A program made the translations under genes and the position numbers. Below, piece after piece: positions 6,239 through 60,285 of a DNA stretch of 64,000 nt; positions within the stretch are counted from its first letter, which is position 1; every line of letters starts with the position of its first letter. The notes beneath the pieces were generated by a model, which did not search any database, was not told the DNA's origin, and saw only the letters and a list, made by a program, of their open reading frames with translations. Source of the stretch: a virus (taxonomy: Duplodnaviria > Heunggongvirae > Uroviricota > Caudoviricetes); IMG/VR virus record IMGVR_UViG_3300043429_000511, positions 1 to 64,000 of that record; one strand, given 5' to 3'.

Positions 6239-6685
6239 TTAACGGGGAAAATTTAAATGTATCCTTTGTACACTACCGGGTTTATATAGACAACCTCTTC
6301 TAGTTCTATATCCTTGTTCATTCAGTAAATTACTAATTTTACTATAGTGAACTTTACCATTACTCTTAATAAAGTCATCGATAAATTCCTTACATATCTT
6401 CCAATTCTCATTCTCTAATCTATTCCTCTTTATAGACTCAAGACTTTTTTTCTTAGCTTCTTTTGTGAGATTTTCAGGGGAACCCAATATAACTCCTCTA
6501 TCCTTTGCACGTTTTAATCCTTCCTTAGTAAGTCTCTTATGATTTGTAAAATCCCTTCCGTGAACCTTTCCGTGACAAACCTCACATAATGGAATAGTCT
6601 TAGTTCCCCCTTTTACTTTAGGAACTACGTGGTGATTATGTATATTCTCCACCGAATCACATTCAAAACATTTAATAATATTCAT
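6239..6685 (-). CDS. HNH homing endonuclease
   Basis: N-terminal HNH motif CFEC...HHVVP...PLCEVCHGKVH; C-terminal HTH-like region. Confidence 0.8.
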   Translation of the reverse strand: MNIIKCFECDSVENIHNHHVVPKVKGGTKTIPLCEVCHGKVHGRDFTNHKRLTKEGLKRAKDRGVILGSPENLTKEAKKKSLESIKRNRLENENWKICKEFIDDFIKSNGKVHYSKISNLLNEQGYRTRRGCLYKPGSVQRIHLNFPR

Positions 6686-7977
6686 ATGTAATTTAACCTT
6701 TTCATTGTGTTATTTCTTATGTCTCTAATTACCCTTAATAATTGTACATAAGTTCTTCCTTTATATCTTTCTAATAGTTCTTTTGGGGGAGCAGTTCGTT
6801 TTGGAATATTCTTTACAATTTCCTTTAGTTCTATCAATTCTTCATTAGAGAATATTGTCTTTTTCTTTGTTGAGTTAAACAAAGATGATTTTATTTTTTG
6901 TTCACACCCGCAAGATGTTGCATTACCCATTCTTAAAGAATTTAACGATATGTCCTTTACAGTCCCACAATCACATTTACATTTCATTGTCCTTTTCTCA
7001 ATACCTGATTTTAAAACTTTAGGTTCCGACTCCGAAATTACCGTTAGTTTGTTATATCGAGTACCCGGTTCGATTTGTAATTTATACCTACCAATTATAC
7101 CGTTATATCTCGGGACAATTACTATATCCTTTTCCATATAGGGTACAATCGGATTTGCCCACAGTGTACAAATATCGGGTATCTTATATCCTTTACTTCC
7201 ATTCTGTTCTACCCAGGTCGGAGATAGGTTTTGGTAGTAACATAATCTATTAATCATTTCAACATCTTCTCCTGCAGCATCCAATGGAATAACGTGGTCA
7301 AGGTTCCAAACCGTTCCATAGTTATCCCAATTCATCCCACTTAAAAATTGTCTCTCAATAAACTCCTTTACCGTAAAGAAATCTACACCTAATAACTTCT
7401 CAGTTTTAGTATCCTTTTTAATCCATTCCCTGTGTTTTCTCTTAAACGCTGAATTGGTTAACTTTCTTAGGGAATCTTTTACTCTTCGATACTCACAAGA
7501 TTTAACAGCTTCCAATTCTTTTTTATAGTCTCTTATCCTATTTTTGTAATGTTCCTTAAATTTATCCGTATTCTTAATTCTATGATAATACTCAGATTTT
7601 TTATTTAATAGTTGTTCCCTGAATTTAGGGTCATCCCTATACCTCTTATCTATTTTACTTTTACATTCTTTACAATAAGATTGAATTCCTCCGAAATTAG
7701 ATTTTAATTTACTGTAGTCATTATAGGGTTTAATTATATCACACCCCGGACATTTTTTCAGTTGTTGTTTATGTAATTCCAATTTTAGTAAGTATTCCTC
7801 GGTGGGAGGTTTAAATTTTAACCTATAACCCACCATACATTCATTACACTTACTTTGATATCTTTTATCAAATGGTCTATTGTAGAAATTAGATAAATCT
7901 TTAATTAGATTACATACTGTACACCTTTTCTTTCCTTCAGAAAATAATTTATAATACTCAGCTCTTTTACCTTTCAT
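6682..7977 (-). CDS. HNH endonuclease with multiple zinc-ribbon repeats
   Basis: WNLDHVIPLDAAG...NLSP HNH core; several CxxC pairs; overlaps downstream HNH by 4 nt. Confidence 0.65.
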   Translation of the reverse strand: MKGKRAEYYKLFSEGKKRCTVCNLIKDLSNFYNRPFDKRYQSKCNECMVGYRLKFKPPTEEYLLKLELHKQQLKKCPGCDIIKPYNDYSKLKSNFGGIQSYCKECKSKIDKRYRDDPKFREQLLNKKSEYYHRIKNTDKFKEHYKNRIRDYKKELEAVKSCEYRRVKDSLRKLTNSAFKRKHREWIKKDTKTEKLLGVDFFTVKEFIERQFLSGMNWDNYGTVWNLDHVIPLDAAGEDVEMINRLCYYQNLSPTWVEQNGSKGYKIPDICTLWANPIVPYMEKDIVIVPRYNGIIGRYKLQIEPGTRYNKLTVISESEPKVLKSGIEKRTMKCKCDCGTVKDISLNSLRMGNATSCGCEQKIKSSLFNSTKKKTIFSNEELIELKEIVKNIPKRTAPPKELLERYKGRTYVQLLRVIRDIRNNTMKRLNYI

Positions 7978-9700: not shown

Positions 9701-9799
9701 TCCCAATAAATATCCTGAATGGATACGGGAATCTGTTAACAAAATATTATAACTTCCGAGTTTGGACCATTTTTACTTCCGAGTTTGTCATATAAAAAC

Positions 9800-10231
9800 T
9801 TAAATGTCTTCATCTCTTGTATGTAAGTTAACTTCAACAATCAATTGTCTAATATAGTCTATGGTATCTTCATAACCACTCAATAATATATCCTCAATTC
9901 TATCCGTTGTTATATAATCATCAAAGGTGAGTCCATAACAATCATCAATCCGTGTTATTGCTCTGTATCTTGTGGGAATACCACTAACTCCATTGGTATG
10001 TAGGAAATCTCTATTGGTTACAATAAAAGCGTGACTCCTATCAAACGTTCCATTTCTCCAATAATTGAAATCCTGTATGGATGATGCTATTACCGCACAT
10101 TCCCTTGTTCTCGGTACTGCCGGAACTACATCAAATAATTCATTATAGACAGTTCTACCCGCCATTCTTCTTATTAACGGAAGACTTAGAACATAATGGT
10201 CATTCTTTCTTAAGAACTTAAATTCTTTCAT
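9800..10231 (-). CDS. FKFF-motif family protein
   Basis: N-terminus MKEFKFLRKN; paralogous N-term motif in >=7 ORFs. Confidence 0.5.
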   Translation of the reverse strand: MKEFKFLRKNDHYVLSLPLIRRMAGRTVYNELFDVVPAVPRTRECAVIASSIQDFNYWRNGTFDRSHAFIVTNRDFLHTNGVSGIPTRYRAITRIDDCYGLTFDDYITTDRIEDILLSGYEDTIDYIRQLIVEVNLHTRDEDI

Positions 10232-10461
10232 CTTAATGTATTTGCATAGTTTCCTGTATAATATCCTCTATTCCATATCTCCGACCTTAGTTCATCCGTG
10301 TATGGACAATTCCTATTATTACCAACCCCCGCATCGAATCCTTCCCTATATGTCCCAATTTCCCCACACTCAACAATATCCAATGGAATATTATCCCTCA
10401 TATAATAAAGAGTATATGATTCATTCTTTATCTCCTTTTGAAAGAACTTAAACTGTCTCAT
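10228..10461 (-). CDS. FKFF-motif family protein
   Basis: N-terminus MRQFKFFQKE. Confidence 0.5.
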   Translation of the reverse strand: MRQFKFFQKEIKNESYTLYYMRDNIPLDIVECGEIGTYREGFDAGVGNNRNCPYTDELRSEIWNRGYYTGNYANTLR

Positions 10462-10810
10462 CTGTTAGATTCTTTATTATAATAGGTTCATCACAATGGG
10501 GACAATCCTTAAGAACCAATAGATTATTCATATGGAAACTCCATTTGGATACCATTGGAACTTCCTCGGGTTTTAGTTTCCTGAAACCATCTTGATTATC
10601 CACCTCACCATATATGTCATAGTACTTACCTTTGTATCTGGTGATGATATGATTCCCATTTGTATAAGGAATACACCCTTTATACATCTTGGATAGGAGC
10701 AAATGAAACTTATAACATCCACCCTTGGAATATATGTGGTGAATGTATTCGTCCGTATGGTTTAGTTCCTCAATGAAGTCAGATATTCCCATTGTCTTGT
10801 TGTTTAGCAA
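10448..10810 (-). CDS. hypothetical protein
   Basis: 120-aa ORF, C-terminal CPHC. Confidence 0.45.
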   Translation of the reverse strand: MLNNKTMGISDFIEELNHTDEYIHHIYSKGGCYKFHLLLSKMYKGCIPYTNGNHIITRYKGKYYDIYGEVDNQDGFRKLKPEEVPMVSKWSFHMNNLLVLKDCPHCDEPIIIKNLTDETV

Positions 10811-11111
10811 GTTCTATAAGTTTATCTATACAAGCATTCTCTACTTCTTCGTATGTATCAAATCTTCTTAAATCATTTATAGAATAACCATTTTCATAAT
10901 GAGTTATGCTTATAAACAAATCATACTTCTCCCTAAACCATCTAAATGCTTGTTGGTAGAGTGGTGAAGCACAAGCATAACTAAGTGAATTTAGTTCAGT
11001 TGTATTTGGAAAGTAGCAACCTTCCAATGTATAAAATCCAAAGCATTCTTCATTAAAACCTAATTCTTTAAGTTCTAATGCTTGTTCGTATGGTATAAAT
11101 TCTTTGTTCAT
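10779..11111 (-). CDS. hypothetical protein
   Basis: 110-aa ORF. Confidence 0.45.
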   Translation of the reverse strand: MNKEFIPYEQALELKELGFNEECFGFYTLEGCYFPNTTELNSLSYACASPLYQQAFRWFREKYDLFISITHYENGYSINDLRRFDTYEEVENACIDKLIELAKQQDNGNI

Positions 11112-11117
11112 ATATTA

Positions 11118-11215
11118 TTTGTTTTTGTAGTCAGGACAGGATTCGAACCTGTAGGATAGGGCTTACCAAGAGCGACTCTGCCTAACGTCCATTAACGTAA
11201 TCGTTACCAATTCCG
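11118..11215 (-). tRNA. tRNA-like gene, type II (tRNA-Leu-like D-arm; possible UAA anticodon) with irregular anticodon stem
   Basis: 7-bp acceptor agtcagg/cctgact, T-arm acagg-TTCGAAT-cctgt, D-arm GGTGGCGGAATTGGTAA nearly identical to E. coli tRNA-Leu; anticodon region acgt-taatgg-acgt is non-canonical; 98 nt, no encoded CCA. Confidence 0.5.
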
Positions 11216-11345
11216 CCACCTGACTATATTTTTATTATTGTGTTAACATCGTAATCACAATACCTAATAAGATTGAAAAAATTACAGCGGTTATTGTAAA
11301 TCCTACCATAATGCCATCAAAATATGTTTTTTCTTTTTTCATAAC

Positions 11346-11531
11346 TTATTTATCTTTTGGTTTAATCCCGATAAAAAGAACCAATAAAGAAATTGGCAAC
11401 CCTAATATCATCCATACATAAAAACTTACGAGTAGTGATGGGTCTTGGTCTCTTGAAAATGATGCCGCACCTGTTAATGCTAACACAAGAACAAATCCGG
11501 ACCAATTTAATCTTTTAATATAATTTTTCAT
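11346..11531 (-). CDS. small membrane protein
   Basis: 61 aa, two hydrophobic segments. Confidence 0.4.
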   Translation of the reverse strand: MKNYIKRLNWSGFVLVLALTGAASFSRDQDPSLLVSFYVWMILGLPISLLVLFIGIKPKDK

Positions 11532-11779
11532 ATGTCCATTAAAAATTCAAGTATTGAACTTAAAGTTGTAAATCCAAAAACTAAGTAAAGTAATTTCACA
11601 CCCCAAAACCAACCAAACAAATCCGATTCTCCGGTTAGGAACCAAAAGATTAGGTACCAAAAACCAAATGATATTAATACACTCAATAAGAATATTAATA
11701 TAACTTTTAAAACTTCTAACATAAAATAAATTTTAATTTGCTTCGGCTTCGTAAACAATTTCATCCACGGTCTCTTCAA
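11528..11779 (-). CDS. small membrane protein
   Basis: 83 aa, 2-3 TM segments. Confidence 0.4.
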   Translation of the reverse strand: MKRPWMKLFTKPKQIKIYFMLEVLKVILIFLLSVLISFGFWYLIFWFLTGESDLFGWFWGVKLLYLVFGFTTLSSILEFLMDI

Positions 11780-12044
11780 TCATTGGTTGGTTCTCCAACT
11801 CCTCAATAACAATGTTAATTGCTTCACGATATCGGGTTTCTCCCGGTTGGAAATAGATTCCGGTTAAACCCAACACTTCATTATCTATGTAGTGGCGGTT
11901 TTTACCTTTACCTTTTAATATTTCGTGGTCCATCGACACATCATCCCAATAGTCCAATACAAGTTTATGTCCACCCTTATCTTTGTGTACCAATCTAACA
12001 ATATTGTTATGACTGAAGTTCTTAATAAATTCTCCTAGTTTCAT
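11733..12044 (-). CDS. hypothetical protein
   Basis: 103-aa ORF. Confidence 0.4.
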   Translation of the reverse strand: MKLGEFIKNFSHNNIVRLVHKDKGGHKLVLDYWDDVSMDHEILKGKGKNRHYIDNEVLGLTGIYFQPGETRYREAINIVIEELENQPMIEETVDEIVYEAEAN

Positions 12045-12048
12045 ATTA

Positions 12049-12333
12049 TTATTTTTTAATTAATTCAAATAGATGCCAAACAAAAGGATTATCGATATAT
12101 GTACCAATGTACTCATATTCATCAATATTTCTAATGTTATGACCTGTACCGTGAATTTCAAATACTCTCTCTTCTAACTCAGCATCAACATTAACAATCG
12201 CCCACATATGAGGGATGTCATTTTGCATTTGAACGGTTAATATCTTTGCTCCTTTCGGCATCATTATAGTACCTACATCAACTCTATATTTCCAAATCTG
12301 TGTCATATTATTTAATTTTAAAAAAATTAACAA
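12049..12333 (-). CDS. hypothetical protein
   Basis: 94-aa ORF. Confidence 0.4.
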   Translation of the reverse strand: MLIFLKLNNMTQIWKYRVDVGTIMMPKGAKILTVQMQNDIPHMWAIVNVDAELEERVFEIHGTGHNIRNIDEYEYIGTYIDNPFVWHLFELIKK

Positions 12334-12493
12334 ATCTATCTTTTAAAGTAATTTTGTTTTTCTTTAACATCTCTTGATATTCTACTACTTCAATCGCTTC
12401 ACTCATTGAGATTGGTGTTCCTCTTCTTACCTTATCAGATAATTCTTCAAGACGTTTGTCTATGATTGTTTTTCTAAATGTATTTTGTAACAT
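12308..12493 (-). CDS. hypothetical protein
   Basis: 61-aa ORF. Confidence 0.3.
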   Translation of the reverse strand: MLQNTFRKTIIDKRLEELSDKVRRGTPISMSEAIEVVEYQEMLKKNKITLKDRFVNFFKIK

Positions 12494-12504
12494 ATTGTTA
12501 TGTT

Positions 12505-12852
12505 TTAATCTTCAAATATTATTTTACCACATTCCCAACATTTATAAACACCCTCACGATAACCTTCTCTTCTTCTTAAAGGATGTTCACATTTATTTTT
12601 ATGCGAGCCAGGGATTTCATCATCACCAATCAACTCTTCATTACTCAATCCACCCCAATCGTCATTTTTAACAATTTTGAAGTTGAGTGTTAACCATCCT
12701 AATAGTGCTAAAGAAATACATAACCACCAATACCATTCTTTATCGGGCACAATGGTCCCCATCAACTTGTGTATAATATATGTACACATCGGTATATACC
12801 AAATGGCTATTGTTCTCCACGGATTTAAAAAACCACGTTTTTTAATTTTCAT
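12505..12852 (-). CDS. membrane protein with C-terminal zinc ribbon
   Basis: TM segments then CEH...CWECGK. Confidence 0.4.
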   Translation of the reverse strand: MKIKKRGFLNPWRTIAIWYIPMCTYIIHKLMGTIVPDKEWYWWLCISLALLGWLTLNFKIVKNDDWGGLSNEELIGDDEIPGSHKNKCEHPLRRREGYREGVYKCWECGKIIFED

Positions 12853-12910
12853 AAGTTATTTCTTTTTATATTACAAAAATATACAAAAAAATCAATAAAA
12901 TGCTCAGTAT

Positions 12911-13390
12911 TTATACTGAATTTGGAATAAACCATTCGGGAATCTCACCATTCTTCCACTTTGAAAATGAACTCTTGGTAAAGTTGTAATAGTTTCTGTA
13001 GGATTGGACGTGACACATTTCTTTGTACTCATTAGGCATCGCTAGTGGTGGTTCGATAAACTTACCTTCTGGTATGTTTGGTGGGTTATCACAACACCAT
13101 AGAATAATGTCATATGATTTGTGTGTTTTAAGATATCTACGTTTGTACTCCCAACACAATTGAATACCCAACATACATAACCATCTATAGTTTTCAGTAT
13201 TAGTTCTTGTCCATATAGCACAAGGATGATTCTTATGAGATAGTTTGTATGGTGCTTCAGAACCGGTTACCCAATGTGCACCACACAATAGTTGTGCGGT
13301 TTCAAGTATCATCTTAACAACGTGTTTGTCATTGTGGTATCTTGCACATCTTGTGGGGTTCTTATCCAAGTAAAATATATTCATTACCAA
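12911..13390 (-). CDS. conserved hypothetical Cys/His-rich protein
   Basis: 159 aa, FYLDKNPTRCARYHNDKH... ; no family assigned. Confidence 0.45.
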   Translation of the reverse strand: MVMNIFYLDKNPTRCARYHNDKHVVKMILETAQLLCGAHWVTGSEAPYKLSHKNHPCAIWTRTNTENYRWLCMLGIQLCWEYKRRYLKTHKSYDIILWCCDNPPNIPEGKFIEPPLAMPNEYKEMCHVQSYRNYYNFTKSSFSKWKNGEIPEWFIPNSV

Positions 13391-13815
13391 GCATTTAATA
13401 ATTTTGCAATTCCGATAATTGTAACAATGGTTGTCAATGCACTCACAACAACCACACCAATTGGGTCATATAACCAACTTTCTTGAAGAACAATTTTAAT
13501 CTTCATCCACCATTTTGGATTCACCTTTGTTACCGTTGTTGTTTGGAATAATTTTATTGGGTTATCATTTAAATCTCTTCCTTCATTAATCCGTCTTGTA
13601 ACTTCCGCTCGTCTCTCCTCCGTTAATCTATCGTGACGTAAGTTCCTATCATAAAAGTATCGTTCCATCTCATTATTGGGATGACGAAGTCTATCATATT
13701 GACCACGGTTTGTGTGATATAACATTCTTCTACTCATATGGCCCTCAGGGGTGTCCTGAAAGGTGTACTCATCACTATAAACATAACCCTTAAAAAATTT
13801 GAACGGTTTAATCAT
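13384..13815 (-). CDS. FKFF-motif family protein with C-terminal TM anchor
   Basis: N-terminus MIKPFKFFKG; hydrophobic C-terminus. Confidence 0.5.
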   Translation of the reverse strand: MIKPFKFFKGYVYSDEYTFQDTPEGHMSRRMLYHTNRGQYDRLRHPNNEMERYFYDRNLRHDRLTEERRAEVTRRINEGRDLNDNPIKLFQTTTVTKVNPKWWMKIKIVLQESWLYDPIGVVVVSALTTIVTIIGIAKLLNAW

Positions 13816-13823
13816 AAACTATT

Positions 13824-13985
13824 ATTCTGCGGTAACATTTTTTTGTTCAATAGCCCTACTCACCCTCCTCTCAAGTTCGGCAACTCTTGACCTAGTTGTA
13901 TCATCCCTTAACCTATCCTCCAATTCTCTCAACCTTCTCTCAAGTTTCTCAACCCTCAAAATTAACTCATCTTGTCTATTTCTCA
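13824..13985 (-). CDS. small coiled-coil protein
   Basis: 54-aa Arg/Glu/Leu heptad ORF (below ORF-track cutoff). Confidence 0.3.
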
Positions 13986-14270
13986 TCAATCTACCAAATA
14001 ATATTTTGACTTTCTGTAATCAATTTTTTCTTGATGTGAGTCTTTCCAATTTTGGATAATATCCAATGCTTGTTCTTTGTGTTGGAATGGATATGCTCCT
14101 GACCTCCACACCTTAAATGGTAGGTAGAAGTAGTTTGTTCTATACCATATCCTTTCTTGGGGTAAGTAATATGTCGTTCCATTATATACCCACGTTTCGA
14201 TACGATACTTAGGTTTAGCTTCTGATGTTATCACTCCCAATAACATTAGTAATAAAATAATTTTTTTCAT
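13986..14270 (-). CDS. secreted small protein
   Basis: N-terminal signal peptide MKKIILLLMLLGVITSEA. Confidence 0.45.
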   Translation of the reverse strand: MKKIILLLMLLGVITSEAKPKYRIETWVYNGTTYYLPQERIWYRTNYFYLPFKVWRSGAYPFQHKEQALDIIQNWKDSHQEKIDYRKSKYYLVD

Positions 14271-14311
14271 CGTATATAAAATATACTAAAAAAATATTAT
14301 AATAAAAACTT

Positions 14312-14542
14312 TTAACGATACCTCCTGTTTAATTGTCTACCAGCAGCAGACGGTGTTTGTAAATAATTGTTATAGTACATTACAAATTCTCTACCATCTT
14401 CTTGGATGACACATCTAAAAAAATCGGGTAACATTTGTGTAACCGTACAATAATATCCACGCAAGATAAATGAAGAACCAACTTCCAATCGACACCTATC
14501 TTTATACTTGTTCTTCTGAAAGAATTTAAATTCACTTACCAT
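14312..14542 (-). CDS. FKFF-motif family protein
   Basis: N-terminus MVSEFKFFQKN. Confidence 0.5.
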   Translation of the reverse strand: MVSEFKFFQKNKYKDRCRLEVGSSFILRGYYCTVTQMLPDFFRCVIQEDGREFVMYYNNYLQTPSAAGRQLNRRYR

Positions 14543-14891
14543 AAATTTTTTTAATTTTATAATAGAGTTTGAATAGTAATTTACTCAACCATACCGGTCG
14601 TCTATAATAAAATCGAGCCCATTCTTTTTTCTGTGGATAAGACCAATGATAACCTACCATTTGTTCAAAGAAAAACTTTCTTAATCTCCATTTTATTTCT
14701 TCACTAAACGATAACATATAAACATCACACATTAACTCGGTTTCATCGTAGTAGTATTCATTACTGTTAATTGTTTTAAAATAAAAAATGGTGTCACCTA
14801 TTTTACACAATCCTGAGAGATGAATGTCATAATGACTATTCACCCAAAAAAATTTTAACTCATCATAAGGTAATGTGGCAATTCGATTCAT
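14532..14891 (-). CDS. hypothetical protein
   Basis: 119-aa ORF. Confidence 0.4.
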   Translation of the reverse strand: MNRIATLPYDELKFFWVNSHYDIHLSGLCKIGDTIFYFKTINSNEYYYDETELMCDVYMLSFSEEIKWRLRKFFFEQMVGYHWSYPQKKEWARFYYRRPVWLSKLLFKLYYKIKKIYGK

Positions 14892-14904
14892 AAAAAAAAT
14901 TTAA

Positions 14905-15087
14905 TTATTTATCCTCAACCCAAATTTCTATCGGTTCGTCAAATGGTGATGTCTTGTTTGGTATATAATTTGGATTCTTTACACTTTTCCAACTCATACC
15001 ACATCTATTACACTTACAACGATTAGGTGCCCACCCAAAATTGTATGTGTACTTGTGTCCGAATATTTTACAAATTAATTTCTTCAT
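14905..15087 (-). CDS. small zinc-ribbon protein
   Basis: CKIFGH...CKCNRCG. Confidence 0.4.
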   Translation of the reverse strand: MKKLICKIFGHKYTYNFGWAPNRCKCNRCGMSWKSVKNPNYIPNKTSPFDEPIEIWVEDK

Positions 15088-15107
15088 CTTAGTAATTTTT
15101 AATTAAT

Positions 15108-15396
15108 CCAAATAAAAAACTAATTTGTAATTTTCCAGTTCTACCCCATTCTATATAGAGTAGTGATTCGTTGTGGTTGATTTCTAATAACGAAAACCAA
15201 CTTCTTCCTCTACCTTCGATTTCAATATCGAATAGTTCTATGTTTAATCTCATAATGGTATGTAAAAAAATAATGAATCAAATTTTGAATGTGCGAGAAA
15301 ATAACTACCGTCTTTACATCGATATAAATTAACTCGTCTACCATTCACTACGTCAGTGAAACGATATTCAATAAAGGTTGCAAATAATCTTTTCAT
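15108..15396 (-). CDS. two translationally coupled micro-ORFs (~48 aa each, ATGA overlap at 15250-15253)
   Basis: direct translation of minus strand; below ORF-track cutoff. Confidence 0.25.
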
Positions 15397-15486
15397 ATTT
15401 CTTACCATTTACCCCATTGGGATTTGTGTCTATTCTCTTCGGCAATCTTAAAACCCAACCATATTTCTTGAAGGGTTTTTTTAAAT

Positions 15487-15855
15487 TTAATTATTAATTT
15501 GTTCATATGCTTTTGGTGATGGTAAACCACTATATTCACAATGAAAATCTTCTCGGTACTCTCTTAGTTTTTCTTTAATCTCCTCGGGAAAGTACATACC
15601 ATTAGATTCCATATCAGCAATAGTTCTGTTAACCGATTTATAAATTATTTTCTTTTCTCTTTTAGGAATAGATTGTTCATCAAACAATCTTTGCATCATA
15701 ACAAACAATGCGTCTCTTCCATATTTTTTTGCGTTCGGGTCATATTGATACCCGTTCTTTTCCATACTCATAAATTCCTTATACACAAGAATACCGAATA
15801 CTAAAAATAAGGTAGACACAATAGTTGTAAGAATTATAATATCTAAATTCTCCAT
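15487..15855 (-). CDS. membrane-anchored hypothetical protein
   Basis: N-terminal TM segment. Confidence 0.45.
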   Translation of the reverse strand: MENLDIIILTTIVSTLFLVFGILVYKEFMSMEKNGYQYDPNAKKYGRDALFVMMQRLFDEQSIPKREKKIIYKSVNRTIADMESNGMYFPEEIKEKLREYREDFHCEYSGLPSPKAYEQINN

Positions 15856-16038
15856 TTTTTATTTTCTTTTAATGTTTACAAAATTCAACAACCCTAAAAT
15901 TGTTGGTGGCCATAACCCAATAAAAATTGCTTTCAAAGGATTGTTTTGTACTAAGTAAATGTATTCACTCACAAAAATACAAATTACACACACCATTAAA
16001 ATAAGCATTTCACTTATACTGAACTTCTTCATAATTTT

Positions 16039-16713
16039 TTAATTTAAACTGTTTGGATAATATAATAAAGTTGGATTCTTTTTTTGAATGTCAACATCGG
16101 GATACTCTTGTTTGAATTTCATAACATCAAATTTTTTGGTAATTAAATGATGTCCGTTTTTTGTTGGGATAATCGATTCAACTTTCGGTCCAACCTTATA
16201 CCCAATCGGTATTCCTACCTCGTCATATTCAACAACAGTAATTGGTTCACAACCATATTCAATATGGGCAACCATTAGTGGTGAGACTTGTGGATTATCA
16301 ATGTCAACAATCCATCTCTTCTCCTGTGTTTTTAATTGACCAACAACGGAATCAAATAATCCTTTTTGATTTTGTACTCCGTTCTTAATTCTTTCCGCCA
16401 AGGTTGCCAACATATCCAATGAAACATCTTTGTGATTTTGTTTTTGAATATGGATGTATGCTCTCGCCTTAAACACCTCACATAATTGTTTTATCTCGTC
16501 ATATCTCATATCGAGATATGAAATACTATCAACACAATATGTCTTTATTGTCCTGACTGACTGATGATTATCTTTCTCACCTTCGGGTTGGTCCTTCTTG
16601 CGTTTGAAAACATAAAGCATATAAAAATCTCCGACTTCGGAGAAATTTAACAACTGCTTAATTTTTTCGATATTATCTATCACTTTTGTCAGTTGATGTG
16701 AAATATTTTTCAA
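16039..16713 (-). CDS. hypothetical protein
   Basis: 224-aa ORF. Confidence 0.45.
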   Translation of the reverse strand: MKNISHQLTKVIDNIEKIKQLLNFSEVGDFYMLYVFKRKKDQPEGEKDNHQSVRTIKTYCVDSISYLDMRYDEIKQLCEVFKARAYIHIQKQNHKDVSLDMLATLAERIKNGVQNQKGLFDSVVGQLKTQEKRWIVDIDNPQVSPLMVAHIEYGCEPITVVEYDEVGIPIGYKVGPKVESIIPTKNGHHLITKKFDVMKFKQEYPDVDIQKKNPTLLYYPNSLN

Positions 16714-16900
16714 TTGCCTCTAACCTATCATCAGCATCAATTAACATCTTAAGAGCATCTTCCGCATTGTTGTAGAAGTCTTTCGTTGAATGGTCACCAA
16801 TACCTACACCTTTATTACCTAAAAGGTCTAATGATAGTAATGCTTTCGCTTTATCAGCTTCCGCCGATGTTTGTAACATTTTAATTAAATTCTGATTCAT
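16673..16900 (-). CDS. hypothetical protein
   Basis: 75-aa ORF. Confidence 0.35.
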   Translation of the reverse strand: MNQNLIKMLQTSAEADKAKALLSLDLLGNKGVGIGDHSTKDFYNNAEDALKMLIDADDRLEAIEKYFTSTDKSDR

Positions 16901-16912
16901 ATTTTTGTTTGT

Positions 16913-17287
16913 TTAAAATAATGATTCAATTAAGTATGAAAGTTTATATCCTGTAAATGCACCAAGTGCTGATGGGATTGGGAATACGATTAACTTACCT
17001 AAACTTGTTACATATCTCGGTCTGTTTTGTATCCTACCCAACATATAATAATAACTCAAGTAACCAACCATAACCATCAAATCAGTTCTTGTGGATATAA
17101 ACACTACGATTGTTGCACCAAGAAATCCAAAGAAAAAATTATCCCTAACTCCTTCCCATACCTCTAGTGAAGTGGCTTCATTCCACTCTTTTATTATTCT
17201 TTGTAATTTTTTTCTTGACATTATTTTCTTGTATCGAATTTTTGAACTATCGACATTATATCTGTGACGTCTGTTGGTCTTAACCAA
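16913..17287 (-). CDS. membrane protein
   Basis: multiple hydrophobic segments. Confidence 0.4.
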   Translation of the reverse strand: MVKTNRRHRYNVDSSKIRYKKIMSRKKLQRIIKEWNEATSLEVWEGVRDNFFFGFLGATIVVFISTRTDLMVMVGYLSYYYMLGRIQNRPRYVTSLGKLIVFPIPSALGAFTGYKLSYLIESLF

Positions 17288-17496
17288 CCCACAACATCTT
17301 CGGTTATTGGTGTGTCATATAGAATTTCTCCGGTTTCCTCACTAACAACCGCCAACTCATACAAATCTTTTTCATTTCCATATGAGTAGTCGTGTTTAAC
17401 TACTGATACACCGTATCCATTCCCAAAATAAAGACGACTAACTACACCATTATTTATTGGGTGAGGATTAAAAACCAAATCATTAAATGTTTTCAT
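17221..17496 (-). CDS. hypothetical protein (paralog of 22128..22406)
   Basis: GYGVSVVKH..LYELAVVSEETGEILYDTPITEDVVGWL vs EWGVSVTRS..LFELVTLDENANVVYNTPLVGPIGFL. Confidence 0.5.
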   Translation of the reverse strand: MKTFNDLVFNPHPINNGVVSRLYFGNGYGVSVVKHDYSYGNEKDLYELAVVSEETGEILYDTPITEDVVGWLRPTDVTDIMSIVQKFDTRK

Positions 17497-18065
17497 ACTA
17501 TTATTTTTTGGTACTTAATTACTTTGAAATGTTCTCTATATTTTTCTCTCGGTATCAGATACCCCATCGTGTGACTGTTTATATCACCCGATTCTTCTGA
17601 TACAGGAAACTCATTGTTTGATATAATCTCTCTAAGTTTTGTTACAGGTATTGACCACAATTCGTCCAAGTGAAAAAAGAAATTCATCCACACATCTGCG
17701 GTCGTTGTTGTTATTCCTGAATCAACTCCTCTACTATGAAACTCTATGAATATATTTCCAGTATCCTTTCCTTCAATCCATATCTCTCTTTCCCATCCTT
17801 GTGGTTTAAACCACTTACCTGGTATAATATAAACATCGGTTTTGATTTCGTACTTAAATGGTTTTGATTTATGTTTTAATTCTAAATCCCATTTTTTTAA
17901 ATCACCTCTCTCTTCCGATTCTCTTACAAATTCTAAACCTTTATAGTCCATCAAATATTGTGCAGCCATCTTCTCACCAATCTTACCAATACGATTATCC
18001 TTTGTGAAATTCTTTTGACTCACAATGTTATCAATATCAGATTTGGTGACGTATAGTTTTACCAT
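17493..18065 (-). CDS. hypothetical protein (weak PD-(D/E)xK-like D-x-E-x-K)
   Basis: 190 aa; WDLELKH motif only. Confidence 0.4.
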   Translation of the reverse strand: MVKLYVTKSDIDNIVSQKNFTKDNRIGKIGEKMAAQYLMDYKGLEFVRESEERGDLKKWDLELKHKSKPFKYEIKTDVYIIPGKWFKPQGWEREIWIEGKDTGNIFIEFHSRGVDSGITTTTADVWMNFFFHLDELWSIPVTKLREIISNNEFPVSEESGDINSHTMGYLIPREKYREHFKVIKYQKIIV

Positions 18066-18307
18066 TAATATTTGTTCTTTTCTGATTTACTTAACTCTTT
18101 TAAAACCTCAACACTTCCTTTCAAATTTTCAAAATCAATATCTCTTTCTAAATGTTGAACGTTTATCTTTGTTGCAAGTACTTCTTGTAATGTTTTTTTA
18201 GCTATTGAATCTGCCAATTTTCTTTTTTGTTTGGTGGTATCAACACCTAACAAAGGTGCTTCAAACTCAACTTCTAATTCTAATTTAATTCTGTATTTGA
18301 ATAACAT
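18065..18307 (-). CDS. hypothetical protein
   Basis: 80-aa ORF with canonical promoter upstream. Confidence 0.45.
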   Translation of the reverse strand: MLFKYRIKLELEVEFEAPLLGVDTTKQKRKLADSIAKKTLQEVLATKINVQHLERDIDFENLKGSVEVLKELSKSEKNKY

Positions 18308-18311
18308 AGTG

Positions 18312-18342
18312 TAAAGTTATTATATTTTTGGAATATTCCAAA
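18312..18342 (-). promoter_or_regulatory. Bacteroidota-type promoter with perfect palindrome TTTGGAATATTCCAAA
   Basis: minus-strand reading TTTG-N19-TAacTTTA-N4-ATG upstream of 18307. Confidence 0.55.
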
Positions 18343-18618
18343 TTATTTTCGAACAATATTAATCATAATTCCTGCTAACCCTGAAGAAACGGTATAGGAA
18401 TTAAATCGGTTATCGTTTATCCAACCGAAGTCCTTGAATCTGAATATGATATGCTGTTTCCCTTCAAAATTGGCGTAGATTGCGTTATCCGCATAATCGA
18501 TAGAAGGTTGCAGTATAAACCCCATTTTCCAACTCTCTCTAAACTCTTCTTCTAATTCGTCAGGAGTGATTAGTATCGTCATAAGTGTCGTCGTTTTCCG
18601 TGAATCTATAATGTTCAA
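18343..18618 (-). CDS. hypothetical protein
   Basis: 91-aa ORF. Confidence 0.4.
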   Translation of the reverse strand: MNIIDSRKTTTLMTILITPDELEEEFRESWKMGFILQPSIDYADNAIYANFEGKQHIIFRFKDFGWINDNRFNSYTVSSGLAGIMINIVRK

Positions 18619-18889
18619 TGGTCAATAAATCTGAAGTAATATCAAAACCCCAACCATCAGGATATTCACTAGTACCTGTATGTGTTCTACCATTACAGGT
18701 TATTGATTTCACAACGACAACAAAGTTATCGGGAAAATGATTTAGGAAGTCATAGATACCTCTGTATTGTTCGGTAACTATGAAATGGTCTAACCCATCT
18801 AAATTTACATTAGTGTCATATATCCAACTTGGAGAAGAGTCTAAATCTAATCCGGTACTTCTCCCTGAAAAAAATTTAAAACTTCTCAT
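18560..18889 (-). CDS. FKFF-motif family protein (start placed at internal MRSFKFFSGR)
   Basis: family motif lies at residue 33 of the longer ORF 18560..18985. Confidence 0.4.
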   Translation of the reverse strand: MRSFKFFSGRSTGLDLDSSPSWIYDTNVNLDGLDHFIVTEQYRGIYDFLNHFPDNFVVVVKSITCNGRTHTGTSEYPDGWGFDITSDLLTIEHYRFTENDDTYDDTNHS

Positions 18890-19034: not shown

Positions 19035-19730
19035 CTACTTTATCTGTTTTGCTTGAGTCCATATTTCTATAATTTTATATAAGTCGTTAGCCAAATCCTT
19101 ATGTCCGTCCTCTGAATAGTGACCATCCTCCATCACACCCAATGTCTCAATTGTGAGTGTTTCATATTCGTGTAATGGAATCACATTTTCAAAAAAACTA
19201 ATGATATTTTCGTCATATTTTCTTTGAATATTCATATTCGAAAAATACCAAAATATTGAGAAGATATCTTCACCACAAACCTTTTTTATTATTTTGGTGT
19301 AGTTAGAAACCTCCTTATAATATATACTTGAGGAATTACGATTTACACCAATCTCCTCCAAACTTTTTTCGGACACGAACCTGTTGGGTGATTTACAACC
19401 CGCCTGAATCATAACCTTTTCAAACTTGTTATTATCATCCGCAATTCTAAACCTATTAGGATATGTCCAATTGACTATCACAATGTCACCAGGTCGGATT
19501 TGGTCCATCACCTCAATAAAACTATGAAATATTTCATCATTCGAGTTTCCTGCCGATGCCAATATCTCTAAATCACATTCCAATTTATCCGATATAATCT
19601 CACCATAACACTTCGGTGAATAACCTTTCCAAATGTGGTATCGAACCCTATAATCAATAGGGTCGTAAAGTTTTTGGTCAAAGTCACTGAACTTCTGACT
19701 AAAGGAATCTCCGAATATCCACAGTTTCAT
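19035..19730 (-). CDS. SGNH/GDSL hydrolase
   Basis: LWIFGDSFS (block I), AGNSND (block III), DGHYSEDGH (block V). Confidence 0.7.
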   Translation of the reverse strand: MKLWIFGDSFSQKFSDFDQKLYDPIDYRVRYHIWKGYSPKCYGEIISDKLECDLEILASAGNSNDEIFHSFIEVMDQIRPGDIVIVNWTYPNRFRIADDNNKFEKVMIQAGCKSPNRFVSEKSLEEIGVNRNSSSIYYKEVSNYTKIIKKVCGEDIFSIFWYFSNMNIQRKYDENIISFFENVIPLHEYETLTIETLGVMEDGHYSEDGHKDLANDLYKIIEIWTQAKQIK

Positions 19731-20335
19731 TATAAAGAATGTATTCTCGTTTTTATTTCATTATAAAATTTATCTGCAACTATTTCATTTCCAACCTCAT
19801 CGAACTTATTATCAATTACAGTTGCACCTTTCTCTTCAAAATACTTAACCAAACAAGTTGTTGATTCATTACATAAGTAACTTCTTTTTGCTTTAAATGA
19901 TGGTCTTGCGGGATATATCAACCTATCCTCATCACTTGACCAAAAAAACAAATTATATCTCTTCGATTTCGCAAGTTCATCTAAAATATTTTCATAGTAA
20001 TAAATCTGTTCACACCATTTTTCAGATAACCTATCTCTAACCACATTCTCAATATATGTTGAGTCAATGTGTTCGTCACCTAAATCATTTGGGCTGTAAC
20101 AAATAAACTCATCATTGATTGGTGTTCTAAAATTACAAACATTACCCCAACCAATAATAACAATATCATCACTATGAATCAAATCACATACACCACAGAA
20201 ATCATCAAAGATTTGATAGTTGCAAGTTTTATCTTTTGATAAGTTTTTAACTTGGTATCCTAATTTCTCACCTAATAAAGTTGTCCAACTACTATTACTG
20301 AAACCATCACCAAATACCCACATTACTCTAATCAT
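19730..20335 (-). CDS. SGNH/GDSL hydrolase paralog (possibly lacking block V His)
   Basis: WVFGDGFS; IVIIGW; FFWSSD; C-terminal DEVGNE instead of D..H. Confidence 0.6.
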   Translation of the reverse strand: MIRVMWVFGDGFSNSSWTTLLGEKLGYQVKNLSKDKTCNYQIFDDFCGVCDLIHSDDIVIIGWGNVCNFRTPINDEFICYSPNDLGDEHIDSTYIENVVRDRLSEKWCEQIYYYENILDELAKSKRYNLFFWSSDEDRLIYPARPSFKAKRSYLCNESTTCLVKYFEEKGATVIDNKFDEVGNEIVADKFYNEIKTRIHSL

Positions 20336-21078
20336 AATAAACTCTTTTTTATTTTGGTGGAGATTTCTTTGTAAAAAACTTCCGCCTGAACCCGATGTCC
20401 AATTTCACCAAAATGTAAATCGGGTATTTTACCCTTTGTTTCCATTTCAACGGTTTTTGCACCCTTTTTTCTAATTAGGTGTGCTAATACACCATCAACA
20501 GAATCTGAACAAAGGTACTTTTTTTTATTTTTAAATTCTTTTGGTTCATCGTAGATAATTTTACTATCACTTGACCAAAAAAATATCTCAAAACCTTTGT
20601 GTTTTGAGAGTTCTTCTATTAAATTTTGTCTATCGTAAATTTCTCTTGTATATATTGGATTAGTTCTCTCAACTAAAAGGAAATCTAACGTCTCCGTTGA
20701 CATATGGGTTGAGTTGACGTCACTATTTTTTGTGTGGTTTGGGAGTACTGAGATTAATTTTGGTAGTTGTTTTTCATCATAACTGCTAATCCAAAATCTT
20801 GCGAGTTGCGTCCAACCAATTACCACAATGTCACCCTCATTAATCATTTCACAATTGTCACAGAACGCACCGAAAATATGGTCATTAGAACTACCTCCCA
20901 CTCCTTTATTTTCAACCTCCATACCCAACATCTTACCCAATCTATGTGGCCAAGTTTCAGGTAACGTTCCACCTAACCAATCTCGATATAACATATAGTT
21001 GTTTTTCTCACCATTCATAGAACTCAGTGGATGATATTCTGCGGTGTAACTACAACCAAATGTCCATAACTTATTCAT
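20332..21078 (-). CDS. SGNH/GDSL hydrolase paralog
   Basis: LWTFGCSYT; GGSSND; IFFWSSD; HFGEIGH. Confidence 0.7.
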   Translation of the reverse strand: MNKLWTFGCSYTAEYHPLSSMNGEKNNYMLYRDWLGGTLPETWPHRLGKMLGMEVENKGVGGSSNDHIFGAFCDNCEMINEGDIVVIGWTQLARFWISSYDEKQLPKLISVLPNHTKNSDVNSTHMSTETLDFLLVERTNPIYTREIYDRQNLIEELSKHKGFEIFFWSSDSKIIYDEPKEFKNKKKYLCSDSVDGVLAHLIRKKGAKTVEMETKGKIPDLHFGEIGHRVQAEVFYKEISTKIKKSLL

Positions 21079-21823
21079 TGTAATATCCGTTTCTATATCT
21101 GTTTATGTCTCTTAGAAACATTTCTGACATTACTCTATGACCAACTTCACCATAATGTTCATCATCCGGTAGAATTCTATTAGTCTCTTCGTGAAAACTT
21201 TGTGCACCATATTCACGGAGAAACTTAGTCATATCCGTATTTGCTTCAGGCACTAAACAATTGTATTTGTACTTAAATGAGTTATCTTCTTTGTTGATTA
21301 TTTGTTTATCTGCCGACCAAAAATATAATTCGAATTGCTTAGCAAGACTTAATTCCTTCATTAACTTCATAAAGGAATATATCTCATCACACCAAACAGG
21401 GTTAATTCTGTTAACCAATATTTGTTGCATCACTTTTAAATCATATTGTACGTGGCTATGTGCTTCTGATGGAATAACAGAAACCATTTGATGGTGTCTA
21501 CCCATATTTTTATTGACAATATCGAATCGTTCTTTTCTCGACCATTCGACAATTACCACATCACCTTTTTGAATTCTTTGACAGTTTGCGGAAAATCTGT
21601 TGAATATTCTGTAGTTAGAAAAACCAGGGTACCCCATATTTTCTTTTTCTAACCCTAATTCTCTTGCAACAATTGTGGGCCACACATCATTTATATCACC
21701 ACCTCGGTAATTTCTATATCTGATGTTATTATTTTCAGATTCATCACTTTGACCGGGTTTCAAATATGATGTAAAATCATATTCTGCGGTGAAACTACAT
21801 CCAAATGTCCACAATTTACTCAT
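21071..21823 (-). CDS. SGNH/GDSL hydrolase paralog
   Basis: LWTFGCSFT; YFWSAD; EHYGEVGH. Confidence 0.7.
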   Translation of the reverse strand: MSKLWTFGCSFTAEYDFTSYLKPGQSDESENNNIRYRNYRGGDINDVWPTIVARELGLEKENMGYPGFSNYRIFNRFSANCQRIQKGDVVIVEWSRKERFDIVNKNMGRHHQMVSVIPSEAHSHVQYDLKVMQQILVNRINPVWCDEIYSFMKLMKELSLAKQFELYFWSADKQIINKEDNSFKYKYNCLVPEANTDMTKFLREYGAQSFHEETNRILPDDEHYGEVGHRVMSEMFLRDINRYRNGYYNE

Positions 21824-25590: not shown

Positions 25591-26079
25591 TTATTTGATG
25601 TTATTTGTTCTATCCCATTTAGCTTTTCTTGCTTCTGGTGATAACATATGACTCTCATCAATTGTATGAGGGATTTGAACTCTTACACACGTTTGCGGTA
25701 ATCTACTATTCATAAAATAATTGTTGATGTAGCCCATCATATTTGCAGAGCCTATTGGGTTCGCGGAGTGGATATAAATCTGTGGTAGTGGTATGTTTTT
25801 ATTCATACTCTCAGCAACTAACCACTTACAACAATCATAACCTGTTTTCTCATTAACTATATTGTCATAGTTTAATGTGTAGTTATTTTTTACGTTTGTA
25901 TAATATTCAACCATTGACAGTTCACCTAAGTCGTGGTCCAATGATATAACTTCATAGTTCTCTAAACCATTCAGTCTTATATGACTAACAAACTCATCAT
26001 AGTTTCTTACTACTTTCCAATCACCTTCTGTTGGTGTTCTTACATCATCAAGATATAAGTAAATTTTATTTTTATTCAT
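25591..26079 (-). CDS. hypothetical protein
   Basis: 162-aa ORF. Confidence 0.45.
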   Translation of the reverse strand: MNKNKIYLYLDDVRTPTEGDWKVVRNYDEFVSHIRLNGLENYEVISLDHDLGELSMVEYYTNVKNNYTLNYDNIVNEKTGYDCCKWLVAESMNKNIPLPQIYIHSANPIGSANMMGYINNYFMNSRLPQTCVRVQIPHTIDESHMLSPEARKAKWDRTNNIK

Positions 26080-27268
26080 CTTTTTTAAATGGTTTTGAAT
26101 ATTTTGGATATAGATTTTTCCAAATCAAATCCGAGTAATCTTTATTATCTAACATTCTAAATAGAAGTGCCTGCAAATCTAATTTTTGTTCTTTAATTTT
26201 TAATGCAGATTCTTTTCTTGTCATTTCAGGTTTAATAATGTTCATAAATGTTAACTGACACATTGTGTCGGTTATTCGATACATTTCCAAGAACTTACTT
26301 TCCTCACCCTTTACCCAATCATAGAATTCATCTGGTACTTTATCCAATATTTCATCGAGTGGTTTACCTGCTCTTAGATATTCCCATATGTCACGATTGG
26401 ATACATTAGTTAAAATTCTATGAAGTCGTTTATACTCTTCTCCTTTGATTTTCATACGAAAACCATTCTTGAAACGAACAACATATCCCTCTCTATCCTT
26501 TGATATCTCCTCCTTCAACAAATCATAACCTTCTCCCCAAGTTTTATATAACATAACAACACGAAATCCAATATTGGAAATCATATTTTGAAATCGAATG
26601 TCTTCATCGCTGTTATGAATATCAACTTCATTACCTGATTTTGTTTCAATCATTCCTAACAAAACAATATCTTCATAATCATATTCACACACTATTCTAT
26701 TCTCTTTGTAAATTATCTCAAACAAATATGTGTAACCCTTGTGTAGTCTTTCGAAATCATATCTATCTAAAAGTTCTTTTCCTTTAATTGCTTGTGACGA
26801 TGTAAATGACCCACGAGTTGCCATAATCCATTCACCTTTTATTTTAGGTGTTGGTTCATAATATGGATTATCAAAATCAGGTAAGTTCTTTGGGTCAAAA
26901 AACTTTTCCATACCTGTTTCATAATTGTTATTAAACCATATGTTGTATCTTCTTTCGTCACTCAATTCATATTCATAATAAAAAAGAATACCTAATGACC
27001 CATCCATTTTTTCATAAACCTCAAAAAATTCGTTTGGTAAATCTTCAGGTTTATGTTCTTCGTAGTTAAAGAATTTCTTAAATGGTCTTGCAACAATATC
27101 ACCTTTAGAATTGGTAACCAATCCGCGACATTGAATTGTAACATCATCCCACAACTTTTCATATTGAACTCTTGGACTATAATTCCAAATAGTTAAATCG
27201 AGAGTTGGGTGAGTCTGTTTATGTAACAACCCATCTTTATGATATTTTTCTAATGTCTCTAATTTCAT
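26072..27268 (-). CDS. RNA ligase 1 (T4 RnlA-like)
   Basis: IQCRGLV...ARPFKKFFNYEE and EKMDGSL (KxDG motif I) align to T4 Rnl1 ALECRGIMF...SRPMEKFFNLNE / TKEDGSL. Confidence 0.75.
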   Translation of the reverse strand: MKLETLEKYHKDGLLHKQTHPTLDLTIWNYSPRVQYEKLWDDVTIQCRGLVTNSKGDIVARPFKKFFNYEEHKPEDLPNEFFEVYEKMDGSLGILFYYEYELSDERRYNIWFNNNYETGMEKFFDPKNLPDFDNPYYEPTPKIKGEWIMATRGSFTSSQAIKGKELLDRYDFERLHKGYTYLFEIIYKENRIVCEYDYEDIVLLGMIETKSGNEVDIHNSDEDIRFQNMISNIGFRVVMLYKTWGEGYDLLKEEISKDREGYVVRFKNGFRMKIKGEEYKRLHRILTNVSNRDIWEYLRAGKPLDEILDKVPDEFYDWVKGEESKFLEMYRITDTMCQLTFMNIIKPEMTRKESALKIKEQKLDLQALLFRMLDNKDYSDLIWKNLYPKYSKPFKKDE

Positions 27269-53832: not shown

Positions 53833-53833
53833 T

Positions 53834-55555: not shown

Positions 55556-55558
55556 AAT

Positions 55559-56179: not shown

Positions 56180-56180
56180 A

Positions 56181-57179: not shown

Positions 57180-57182
57180 TAT

Positions 57183-60282: not shown

Positions 60283-60285
60283 AGT

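Follow-up and report, generated by a model that had tools for sequence, protein, structure and literature searches.

The internal proteins Ip1-3 of bacteriophage T4 have a single feature in common, an N-terminal leader for capsid packaging, MKTYQEFIAE, known as the capsid-targeting sequence (CTS); the prohead protease cuts each of them once, beside the CTS, while the scaffold is degraded, and after injection they block type IV restriction of glycosylated DNA (PMC8442874, PMC3012670, PMC12373910). An N-terminal leader of 13-14 residues is common to ribosomal protein L27 and to the capsid and scaffold proteins of staphylococcal phage 80alpha; it is cleaved by one dedicated protease, Prp, and ends in FF/A, where the slash marks the cut (PMC5744158). 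Lysine deserts, i.e. the conserved absence of Lys with retention of Arg, have been described in proteins found near ubiquitin or Pup ligases (PMC10169902, PMC10665810). The PeSL of T4-type hyperplastic regions are non-coding cassettes made of a promoter and a stem-loop (PMC2839356, PMC4122927). We analysed a 64,000-nucleotide stretch of a Caudoviricetes genome (positions 1 to 64,000 of IMG/VR record IMGVR_UViG_3300043429_000511; hereafter the window), in which seven small open reading frames (ORFs) begin with the same short peptide, called here the tag. This leader is a real, unannotated, lineage-specific peptide; the small phage proteins that carry it are very numerous and unrelated to one another, and their bodies are depleted in lysine.

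The first-pass annotation of the window had reported seven small ORFs with a near-identical N-terminus, and this was borne out: M-x(1-3)-F-K-F-[F/L] opens each of the seven, of which five are on the minus and two on the plus strand. These genes, together with a shorter tag-bearing ORF, are as follows:

9800-10231, minus strand: tagged gene, 143 aa (MKEFKFLRKND...); leader at about residues 1-14; no Lys and 14 Arg after residue 20.
10228-10461, minus strand: tagged gene, 77 aa (MRQFKFFQKEIK...); no Lys and 6 Arg in the body, which is weakly similar to ribosome modulation factor (RMF).
13384-13815, minus strand: tagged gene, 143 aa (MIKPFKFFKGYV...); C-terminal hydrophobic helix; 6 Lys and 14 Arg in the body; member of the largest body family in related loci (13 members).
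14312-14542, minus strand: tagged gene, 76 aa (MVSEFKFFQKNKYK...); small SH3/Tudor-like beta-barrel body; no Lys and 7 Arg after residue 20.
18560-18889, minus strand: tagged gene, 109 aa (MRSFKFFSGRST...); 1 Lys and 3 Arg in the body; the ATG at 18889 is backed by orthologues starting at the same Met (MRSFKFF).
55081-55344, plus strand: tagged gene, 87 aa (MSFKFLRDNN...), within a glycosyltransferase/epimerase cluster, a position kept in other assemblies; 1 Lys and 3 Arg in the body.
55337-55555, plus strand: tagged gene, 72 aa (MISEFKFFRGIS...); no Lys and 6 Arg in the body.
9736-9813, minus strand: tag-bearing ORF of 25 codons, MKTFKFLYDKLGSKNGPNSEVIIFC followed by a stop (MKTFKFLYDK...), flanked by the last tagged gene on one side and the metallophosphatase gene on the other.

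The consensus of the tag is M-(I)-[K/R]-[P/E/S/T]-F-K-F-[F/L]-[Q/R/S]-[K/G/D]-[N/E]. Together with about six polar, Lys-rich residues that follow, it makes up a leader of about 14 residues. The tag is strictly N-terminal, with its first Phe at residue 4-5. Gene calling gave 122 genes and 19,554 residues for the window. In these proteins FKF[FL] occurs seven times, each within residues 1-9, and FKF is never found internally. From composition, 0.57 occurrences of FKF[FL] would be expected overall and 0.014 at positions 2-5 (Poisson P about 1e-16). The motif is thus not equally frequent at internal positions, which rules out chance or AT-rich codon bias as its source. The ORF at 38749-39096 (MKHYRFYKD) had been put forward as a possible eighth member; it is a DUF6717 / phrog_24162 protein, with a full-length match to DUF6717 (PF20475) above threshold (108 bits, 4e-31, residues 3-115). 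Since that match begins at residue 3, the N-terminus belongs to the DUF6717 domain and the gene was excluded from the tag family.

To avoid circularity, homologues were fetched with body sequences only, so that the tag was not in the query. The strict tag was present in 131 of the 146 distinct homologous segments retrieved. Eight more lacked an ATG start only (7 of them have FKF[FL], some behind GTG or TTG), and the other seven had spacing or conservative changes (FNFF, FKLL, FKYF, FRFF). For the 9800-10231 family, searched in a 5.8-billion-protein database, 110 of 118 homologues carried the strict tag and 3 had FKLL, the remainder being mostly fragments. The corresponding values were 66 of 71 for the 14312-14542 family (the other five have FRFF or FRLF) and 5 of 5 for the 10228-10461 family. 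Retention of the tag among body-retrieved homologues was 90-100%.

At the nucleotide level the picture is one of freedom. Within the window the codons of the tag vary (TTT/TTC, AAA/AAG, TTA/CTA/CTC), and over 133 distinct tagged genes their use was close to background (TTT 77% versus 73%, AAA 74% versus 63%), with TTT at 61% for the second Phe and the Leu encoded by TTA, CTA or CTC. Conservation begins at the ATG and stops at about codon 7-10; the 40 nt upstream of tagged genes are unconserved, no position having more than 0.19 bit. Free synonymous and rare non-synonymous change, with no upstream conservation, indicate that selection bears on the peptide: the tag is selected as a peptide, not as nucleic acid. 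Codon statistics and unconserved upstream DNA likewise rule out a DNA or RNA element (promoter, operator, repeat or PeSL). Beyond the ORFs there was no conservation free of 3-nt periodicity, megablast of the region returned neither a repeat nor a match, and promoters of the sigma-70-like, T4 late (TATAAATA) or Bacteroidota (TAnnTTTG) type were not enriched.

One can still imagine a signal acting on nucleic acid or translation, such as an AU-rich start for initiation without Shine-Dalgarno, a RegA-like operator, a recombination junction at which cassettes are shuffled, or avoidance of Lys codons. It would fit the rarity of Shine-Dalgarno-like sequences (GGAG, GAGG, AGGA), seen upstream of only 8 of the 122 window genes, and the fact that in 43 of 139 tagged genes the TAA stop of the upstream gene lies inside the TTT-AAA of the tag (overlaps of 14, 11 and 17 nt). 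In the M-x-x subset, TTT is also used slightly more often for the first Phe (88% versus 73%), and the window carries RNA-repair genes. Against such a signal stand the strict 3-nt periodicity, the three different Leu codons at position 4 and the lack of upstream conservation. Avoidance of Lys codons, as might be imposed by tRNA-Lys nucleases or AAA-cutting toxins, is contradicted by the enrichment of Lys codons, about 3-fold, in codons 9-14, before they are purged; no tRNA gene was found in the window. We regard an explanation of this type as very improbable and largely refuted.

How widely is the tag distributed? The window had no nucleotide match, and the 9800-10231 protein no protein match, among GenBank phages. 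Relatives were found in IMG/VR, as contigs of 100-335 kb with a GC content of 30-35%; they include IMGVR_UViG_3300042391_000634 (335 kb), 3300032313_000682 (316 kb) and 3300046820_002180 (160 kb), and there are also tag-negative relatives, e.g. 3300027816_000051. The loci fetched from them contain 164 tagged ORFs, corresponding to 131 distinct proteins of 52-189 aa, so the motif does occur on different small proteins in related phages, with at least 42 body families. Arrays reach up to 16 tagged genes within about 10 kb (loci L094, L101, L119, L092, L115, L003). Exact scans of the whole of IMG/VR gave 37 stretches with M-x-x-FKFFQK and 43 with MKPFKFF; stretches with several copies were all of this lineage, and the single copies seen in contigs whose GC content differs look fortuitous. 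The tag is restricted to one lineage of large freshwater phages. It was absent from 36 kb around the relevant gene of Tenacibaculum phage pT24, the nearest isolate for a neighbouring gene. A scan of GTDB genomes for a tagged host protein or prophage gave, among the 120 matches listed, scattered single hits and no recurrent host family, and FKFF was not found mentioned together with phage in the literature searched.

The proteins behind the tag are otherwise unrelated, as had been proposed. The 131 distinct proteins fell into 42 body clusters by BLAST, and when the 18 clusters with at least three members were compared by HHalign, only 1 of 153 family pairs was related. The searches against family databases gave no significant Pfam, PHROG or NCBIfam match for the 42 cluster representatives and no significant Pfam or PHROG match for the seven window ORFs. 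A single divergent paralogue or fold family is ruled out by the HHalign result, by the differing AlphaFold2 (AF2) models and by the existence of tagless homologues elsewhere. The model of the 9800-10231 protein (143 aa, 57 sequences) is weak overall (mean pLDDT 51.6), with residues 1-40 below 50 and a predicted alpha/beta core from residue 43; in that of a second family, residues 1-13 are coil. The tag is therefore predicted to lie outside the fold in these two models, one of them weak. Insertions and deletions occur directly after the tag, and one homologue of 10228-10461 has an insertion of about 50 aa between tag and domain.

The history of the tag can be read in the family of the 76-aa protein (14312-14542). 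Its profile gave 34 hits among 1.84 billion representatives; the majority, and every one of the more distant hits, are tagless and start at the domain, e.g. MKKRCRLAIGSTF... Since the distant homologues are tagless, the tag was added to a pre-existing domain in this lineage and is a portable add-on. Distant tagless homologues of this protein (P0209, P0211-P0213, P0220 and P0227) have, near the N-terminus, (S)-M/I-D-N-P-P-[IV] in front of the same barrel. This (S)MDNPP motif could be another lineage-specific leader; only one locus was retrieved, and it was unrelated.

Two further similarities of bodies were noted. The 10228-10461 protein matches Pfam RMF (PF04957) with E=7e-4 and 20 bits, the gathering cut-off being 27.9, and a PDB profile with E of 0.11-0.17. 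Several tagged proteins of about 75 aa (10228-10461 and clusters 11, 18, 19 and 20) share G-x-x-A-G...(C)P-Y...W-x-x-G-W/Y and resemble ribosome modulation factor. The 55337-55555 protein has sub-threshold similarity to a segment of the T4 major capsid protein Gp23 (Pfam 4.8e-4; phrog_138 3e-3), which is probably due to chance.

What these unrelated bodies do have in common is a near-absence of lysine. In the six residues after FKF[FL], Lys amounts to 18.7%, against 6.1% at the equivalent positions of untagged genes. From the seventh residue on it falls sharply to 1.2-2.0%, whereas untagged proteins of the same phage have a Lys content of about 8.5%, and of about 8% beyond residue 14. Arg goes the other way (7.6% in tagged versus 4.2% in untagged proteins), and the median K/(K+R) is 0.20 versus 0.67 (Mann-Whitney p=5e-13). 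Of the seven tagged proteins of the window, four are free of Lys beyond residue 20 and contain 6-14 Arg apiece, and the 13 lowest K/(K+R) values include those of all seven. The tagged genes have the GC content of the rest of the window (0.342 versus 0.334) and matching Arg codon usage, so that the low Lys is not an artefact of composition or of horizontal transfer. Over 33 loci, the combination of K at or below 3% and R at or above 4% was found in 79 of 133 tagged proteins, against 34 of the 369 small proteins that have no tag (Fisher p=1e-29); of those 34, many show a tag behind a mis-called start or a variant tag, and others are apparently truncated family members. The SH3-like family allows tag and composition to be compared within one fold: the median Lys content of the domain is 1.9% in tagged (n=70) and 9.6% in tagless proteins (n=28; p=6e-12), the conserved FKG and GRKLN of tagless members becoming FRG and GRQLN in tagged ones. 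The bodies thus show what characterizes lysine deserts, namely conserved Lys-poor stretches in which Arg is kept and which composition does not explain. The coupling of a tag to the purging of lysine from its cargo is new.

Other Lys-poor proteins are encoded in these genomes. A tail-fibre gene with an S74 chaperone domain (window 59797-63960, minus strand; 3717-8678 in L168, where the product has 1204 aa) is followed by genes for three small proteins (142, 145 and 161 aa) with 0.7-1.4% K, 0.6-2.1% D and E, and no family match. Low Lys as a general signature of virion proteins was considered and rejected, since the pattern of this cluster is another one: its proteins are extremely low in every charged residue. 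Directly upstream of 13384-13815, ORF 13822-13986 (minus strand) encodes a tagless 54-aa protein with 20.6% Arg and 2.9% Lys, kept in L001 and L005; it may be a coiled coil, as judged by eye, and may belong to the same system as the tagged genes.

Taken together, the fixed N-terminal position, the near-invariant F-K-F and the spread to unrelated folds point to recognition by one specific receptor, for which the N-terminus must be free or the first part to emerge, and the confinement of Lys to about the first 14 residues points to a pathway with a lysine-directed chemistry harmful to the body. One machinery would recognize the leader on many unrelated small accessory proteins, and would perform, or expose its cargo to, a lysine-directed reaction, Lys being tolerated in the leader only and replaced by Arg in the bodies. 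The interpretation that we favour, tentatively and at somewhat less than an even chance, is modelled on T4 CTS/Ip. The leader would direct the proteins into the assembling prohead, where a maturation protease cutting at Lys, e.g. at the invariant F-K-F and the flanking Lys, would remove it; the Lys-free mature proteins would survive in the protease-filled head, be ejected with the DNA and act at once, probably against host defences. We infer a common receptor, Lys-directed cleavage, location in the capsid, injection and a role in anti-defence.

The first-pass annotation had compared the tag with the T4 capsid-targeting sequence. That likeness stands as regards a shared N-terminal tag, unrelated small proteins, selection on the peptide and portability, and fails at the cleavage site: neither a T4-type (L/I)xE nor a phiKZ-type (S/A/G)xE site was found after the tag, nor any fixed cleavage motif. 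[LI]xE is present in residues 8-25 of 26% of the families, against 14-17% in control windows, with the Glu at no fixed position. The alternative of a secretion signal, raised at the same time, was not upheld: the tag is followed by polar, Lys-rich residues and not by the hydrophobic h-region of 7-15 residues that comes after a basic n-region in signal peptides, so that it does not have the features of a Sec, Tat (RRxFLK) or lipoprotein (lipobox) signal, and the only family with a clear hydrophobic helix has it at the C-terminus.

Several observations, besides the missing cleavage site, weigh against a capsid leader. The tagged proteins have pI values of 4.2-10, and so are not uniformly basic, and are Lys-poor, whereas the T4 internal proteins are basic and Lys-rich. 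One tagged family has a C-terminal transmembrane helix. Clusters 1, 26 and 27 are tagged and yet not depleted in Lys. The tagged genes are in tight operon-like arrays among early-type accessory genes, with no recognizable late promoter. Finally, a Lys-specific prohead protease of this lineage is purely inferred, and we know of no characterized example of a Lys-specific maturation protease.

The same sharp boundary of Lys, confined to residues 2-14, can be explained in another way. The leader Lys could be a docking or acceptor site for covalent conjugation or crosslinking, in a pathway of the phage's own or one taken over from its host, and the Lys-free bodies would thereby escape off-target modification. 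Candidates are a ubiquitin-like ligase, a transglutaminase-type crosslinker or an acyltransferase acting on the invariant Lys of the tag or on an adjacent one. The coupling of tag and depletion within one fold family agrees with this, as does the near-invariance of F-K-F, in which K-to-R change is rare in spite of the identical charge; in addition, lysine deserts are documented for proteins of the ubiquitin-proteasome and pupylation systems (PMC10169902, PMC10665810). However, no ligase, ubiquitin-like, transglutaminase or acyltransferase gene was recognized in the window, and there is no phage precedent. Pupylation, moreover, is not known to occur in Bacteroidota. We consider conjugation possible but doubtful; it explains the data almost as well as a capsid leader does and would be more novel. 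An equally doubtful extension is that the Lys-free bodies form a library of binding modules, which would amount to a ubiquitin-like logic in a Bacteroidota phage.

Other properties of the leader recall motifs that need no lysine chemistry. An arrangement of tag, linker and small binding-type domain (SH3/Tudor-like barrel, possible RMF-like domain) would suit a short linear motif by which diverse effector domains are held at a single hub, such as the sliding clamp, RNA polymerase, the ribosome or the membrane, with no processing. The hydrophobic-polar-hydrophobic-Phe pattern loosely recalls clamp-binding motifs and the membrane-active peptide (KFF)3K. We find this rather unlikely, for motifs that bind hubs are found at either terminus as well as internally, whereas the tag is at residues 4-8 only, generic membrane binding would allow hydrophobic swaps, and the loss of Lys is left unexplained. 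The strictly N-terminal position, the aromatic and basic residues, the flexible linker in front of a small folded domain and the early-type operons would also be in keeping with an N-terminal degron for a host AAA+ protease (ClpXP, ClpAP/ClpS or Lon), giving early proteins a short and synchronized lifetime; in a variant, a cut after the tag Lys would expose an N-terminal Phe, the classical bacterial N-degron. But bacterial AAA+ degrons do not involve Lys, so depletion is again unaccounted for, the known N-terminal ClpX motifs are loose when F-K-F is near-invariant, and there is no obvious reason for at least 40 families to use one degron. A degron is in our opinion distinctly unlikely.

The genomic setting of the tagged genes is a hyperplastic region between a conserved phrog_14949 gene (16039-16713) and a pair formed by the metallophosphatase and GT2 genes; two further tagged genes are inside the glycosyltransferase/epimerase cluster. 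Comparison with a contig 91-97% identical in the flanks (L004) revealed that whole cassettes are inserted, deleted or replaced. The variable stretches are 10117-11344, 13384-13396 and 14542-14911, and several breakpoints are at or beside the start codons of tags; the RMF-like tagged gene of the window and two ORFs, for instance, correspond to a different 121-aa tagged gene in L004. The 25-codon ORF at 9736-9813, whose TTT-AAG contains the TAA stop of gene 9800-10231, is probably the remnant, or scar, of a lost tagged cassette. The proteins encoded upstream of tagged genes often end in N-E-T-I, E-N-I or D-E-D-I directly before the stop, with the 14-nt overlap ATGnnnnnnTTTAA (L123, 9649-11833; window, 9800-9813; many other loci). 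Another 24 of the 139 tagged genes have an ATGA overlap with the upstream gene. The stop-in-tag junctions suggest chained translational coupling.

Homologues of the 16039-16713 gene are mainly in Bacteroidota phages (Cellulophaga phi17:2, Tenacibaculum pT24, Prevotella Lak), and also in a crAss-like phage and other gut-derived uncultured phages. Combined with the scarcity of Shine-Dalgarno sequences, this suggests a Bacteroidota host, probably a freshwater one. There is no head module among the window genes, and a search for that of the lineage with the pT24 portal returned pT24 itself only.

The window also contains a number of genes of other kinds. Counter-defence directed at anticodon nucleases is suggested by an RNA-repair set (25591-27918 and 37375-37971, minus strand), in which cREC_REC and HAD_SAK_2 are accompanied by an RnlA-like RNA ligase and a calcineurin-like phosphoesterase. 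Five glycosyltransferases, an NAD-dependent sugar epimerase, a dTDP-4-dehydrorhamnose epimerase, a long thymidylate-synthase-like protein and two DNA methyltransferases (52477-58915, plus strand; 28960-29499, 46552-47688, 41100-42053 and 50527-51228) may serve DNA hypermodification or glycosylation of the virion. A DenV-like glycosylase is found among the surrounding accessory and counter-defence-type genes, and a single ORF (6682-7977, minus strand, 431 aa) combines Lar-like, endonuclease VII-like and HNH endonuclease matches. Five paralogues, four of them in tandem (19035-21823 and 48040-48684, minus strand), have an N-terminal (K)LW-x-FG-[DC]-S-[FY] block, with no Pfam hit for the four tested. 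The block resembles block I, GDS(L), of the SGNH hydrolases; the likeness among the five is due to true homology, in contrast to that of the FKFF tag.

Should the leader serve for capsid targeting and ejection, it would be the second sorting code of its kind, following that of T4. It would also label, from sequence alone, a large unannotated repertoire of probably injected effectors (at least 42 families) in abundant freshwater phages; the bodies would be prime candidates for new anti-defence functions and the tag a ready-made means of bringing foreign proteins into these capsids. The link between tag and lysine points to the chemistry of the pathway, whether a Lys-specific maturation protease or a Lys-directed conjugation. 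It also suggests a more general idea for sequence analysis, namely that a residue depleted from the cargo may show what the handling machinery is specific for.

How, then, does this system relate to those already described? Like the Prp/L27 leader, the tag is a conserved N-terminal peptide on non-homologous phage proteins. The Prp/L27 leader is on structural proteins and not on arrays of small accessory proteins; its system belongs to Firmicutes, uses a host protease and a motif copied from a host ribosomal protein, and no residue depletion is reported there, whereas the tag differs from FF/A and the homologues of the neighbouring gene are in phages of Bacteroidota hosts or of the gut. The lysine deserts known so far are in eukaryotic or actinobacterial cellular proteins; here they are in phage proteins, and depletion is coupled to an N-terminal tag that itself bears Lys. 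With PeSL cassettes the tagged genes share their nature of small accessory ORFs swapped between close relatives in plastic regions, but the conserved element is coding and selected as a peptide, and the flanking DNA is unconserved. The cargo-loading peptides of encapsulins and the encapsulation peptides of microcompartments also sort unrelated cargo into a protein shell by means of a short terminal peptide. Those of encapsulins are usually C-terminal and those of microcompartments are amphipathic helices; they are uncleaved and impose no constraint on the composition of the cargo.

The comparison with T4 goes furthest. In both systems a strictly N-terminal leader of about 10 residues precedes small unrelated proteins (about 70-190 aa) encoded in hypervariable hotspots. 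The CTS and the tag coincide in M, K, (T), an aromatic residue at position 4 and F at position 7, which falls short of relatedness; this MKT-aromatic-x-x-F echo is superficial, a lead rather than evidence. Membership of the T4 CTS/Ip system is not established, because its leader sequence and cleavage-site features are not found here: the motif is F-K-F-F/L, without (L/I)xE site, in another phage lineage. The scale also differs (about 10 ip types are known, whereas the tag is on at least 42 body families, in arrays of up to 16 genes), as does the composition of the bodies, depleted in Lys and rich in Arg, for which nothing comparable has been described in T4. With these differences, the T4 CTS/Ip system is the closest one known.

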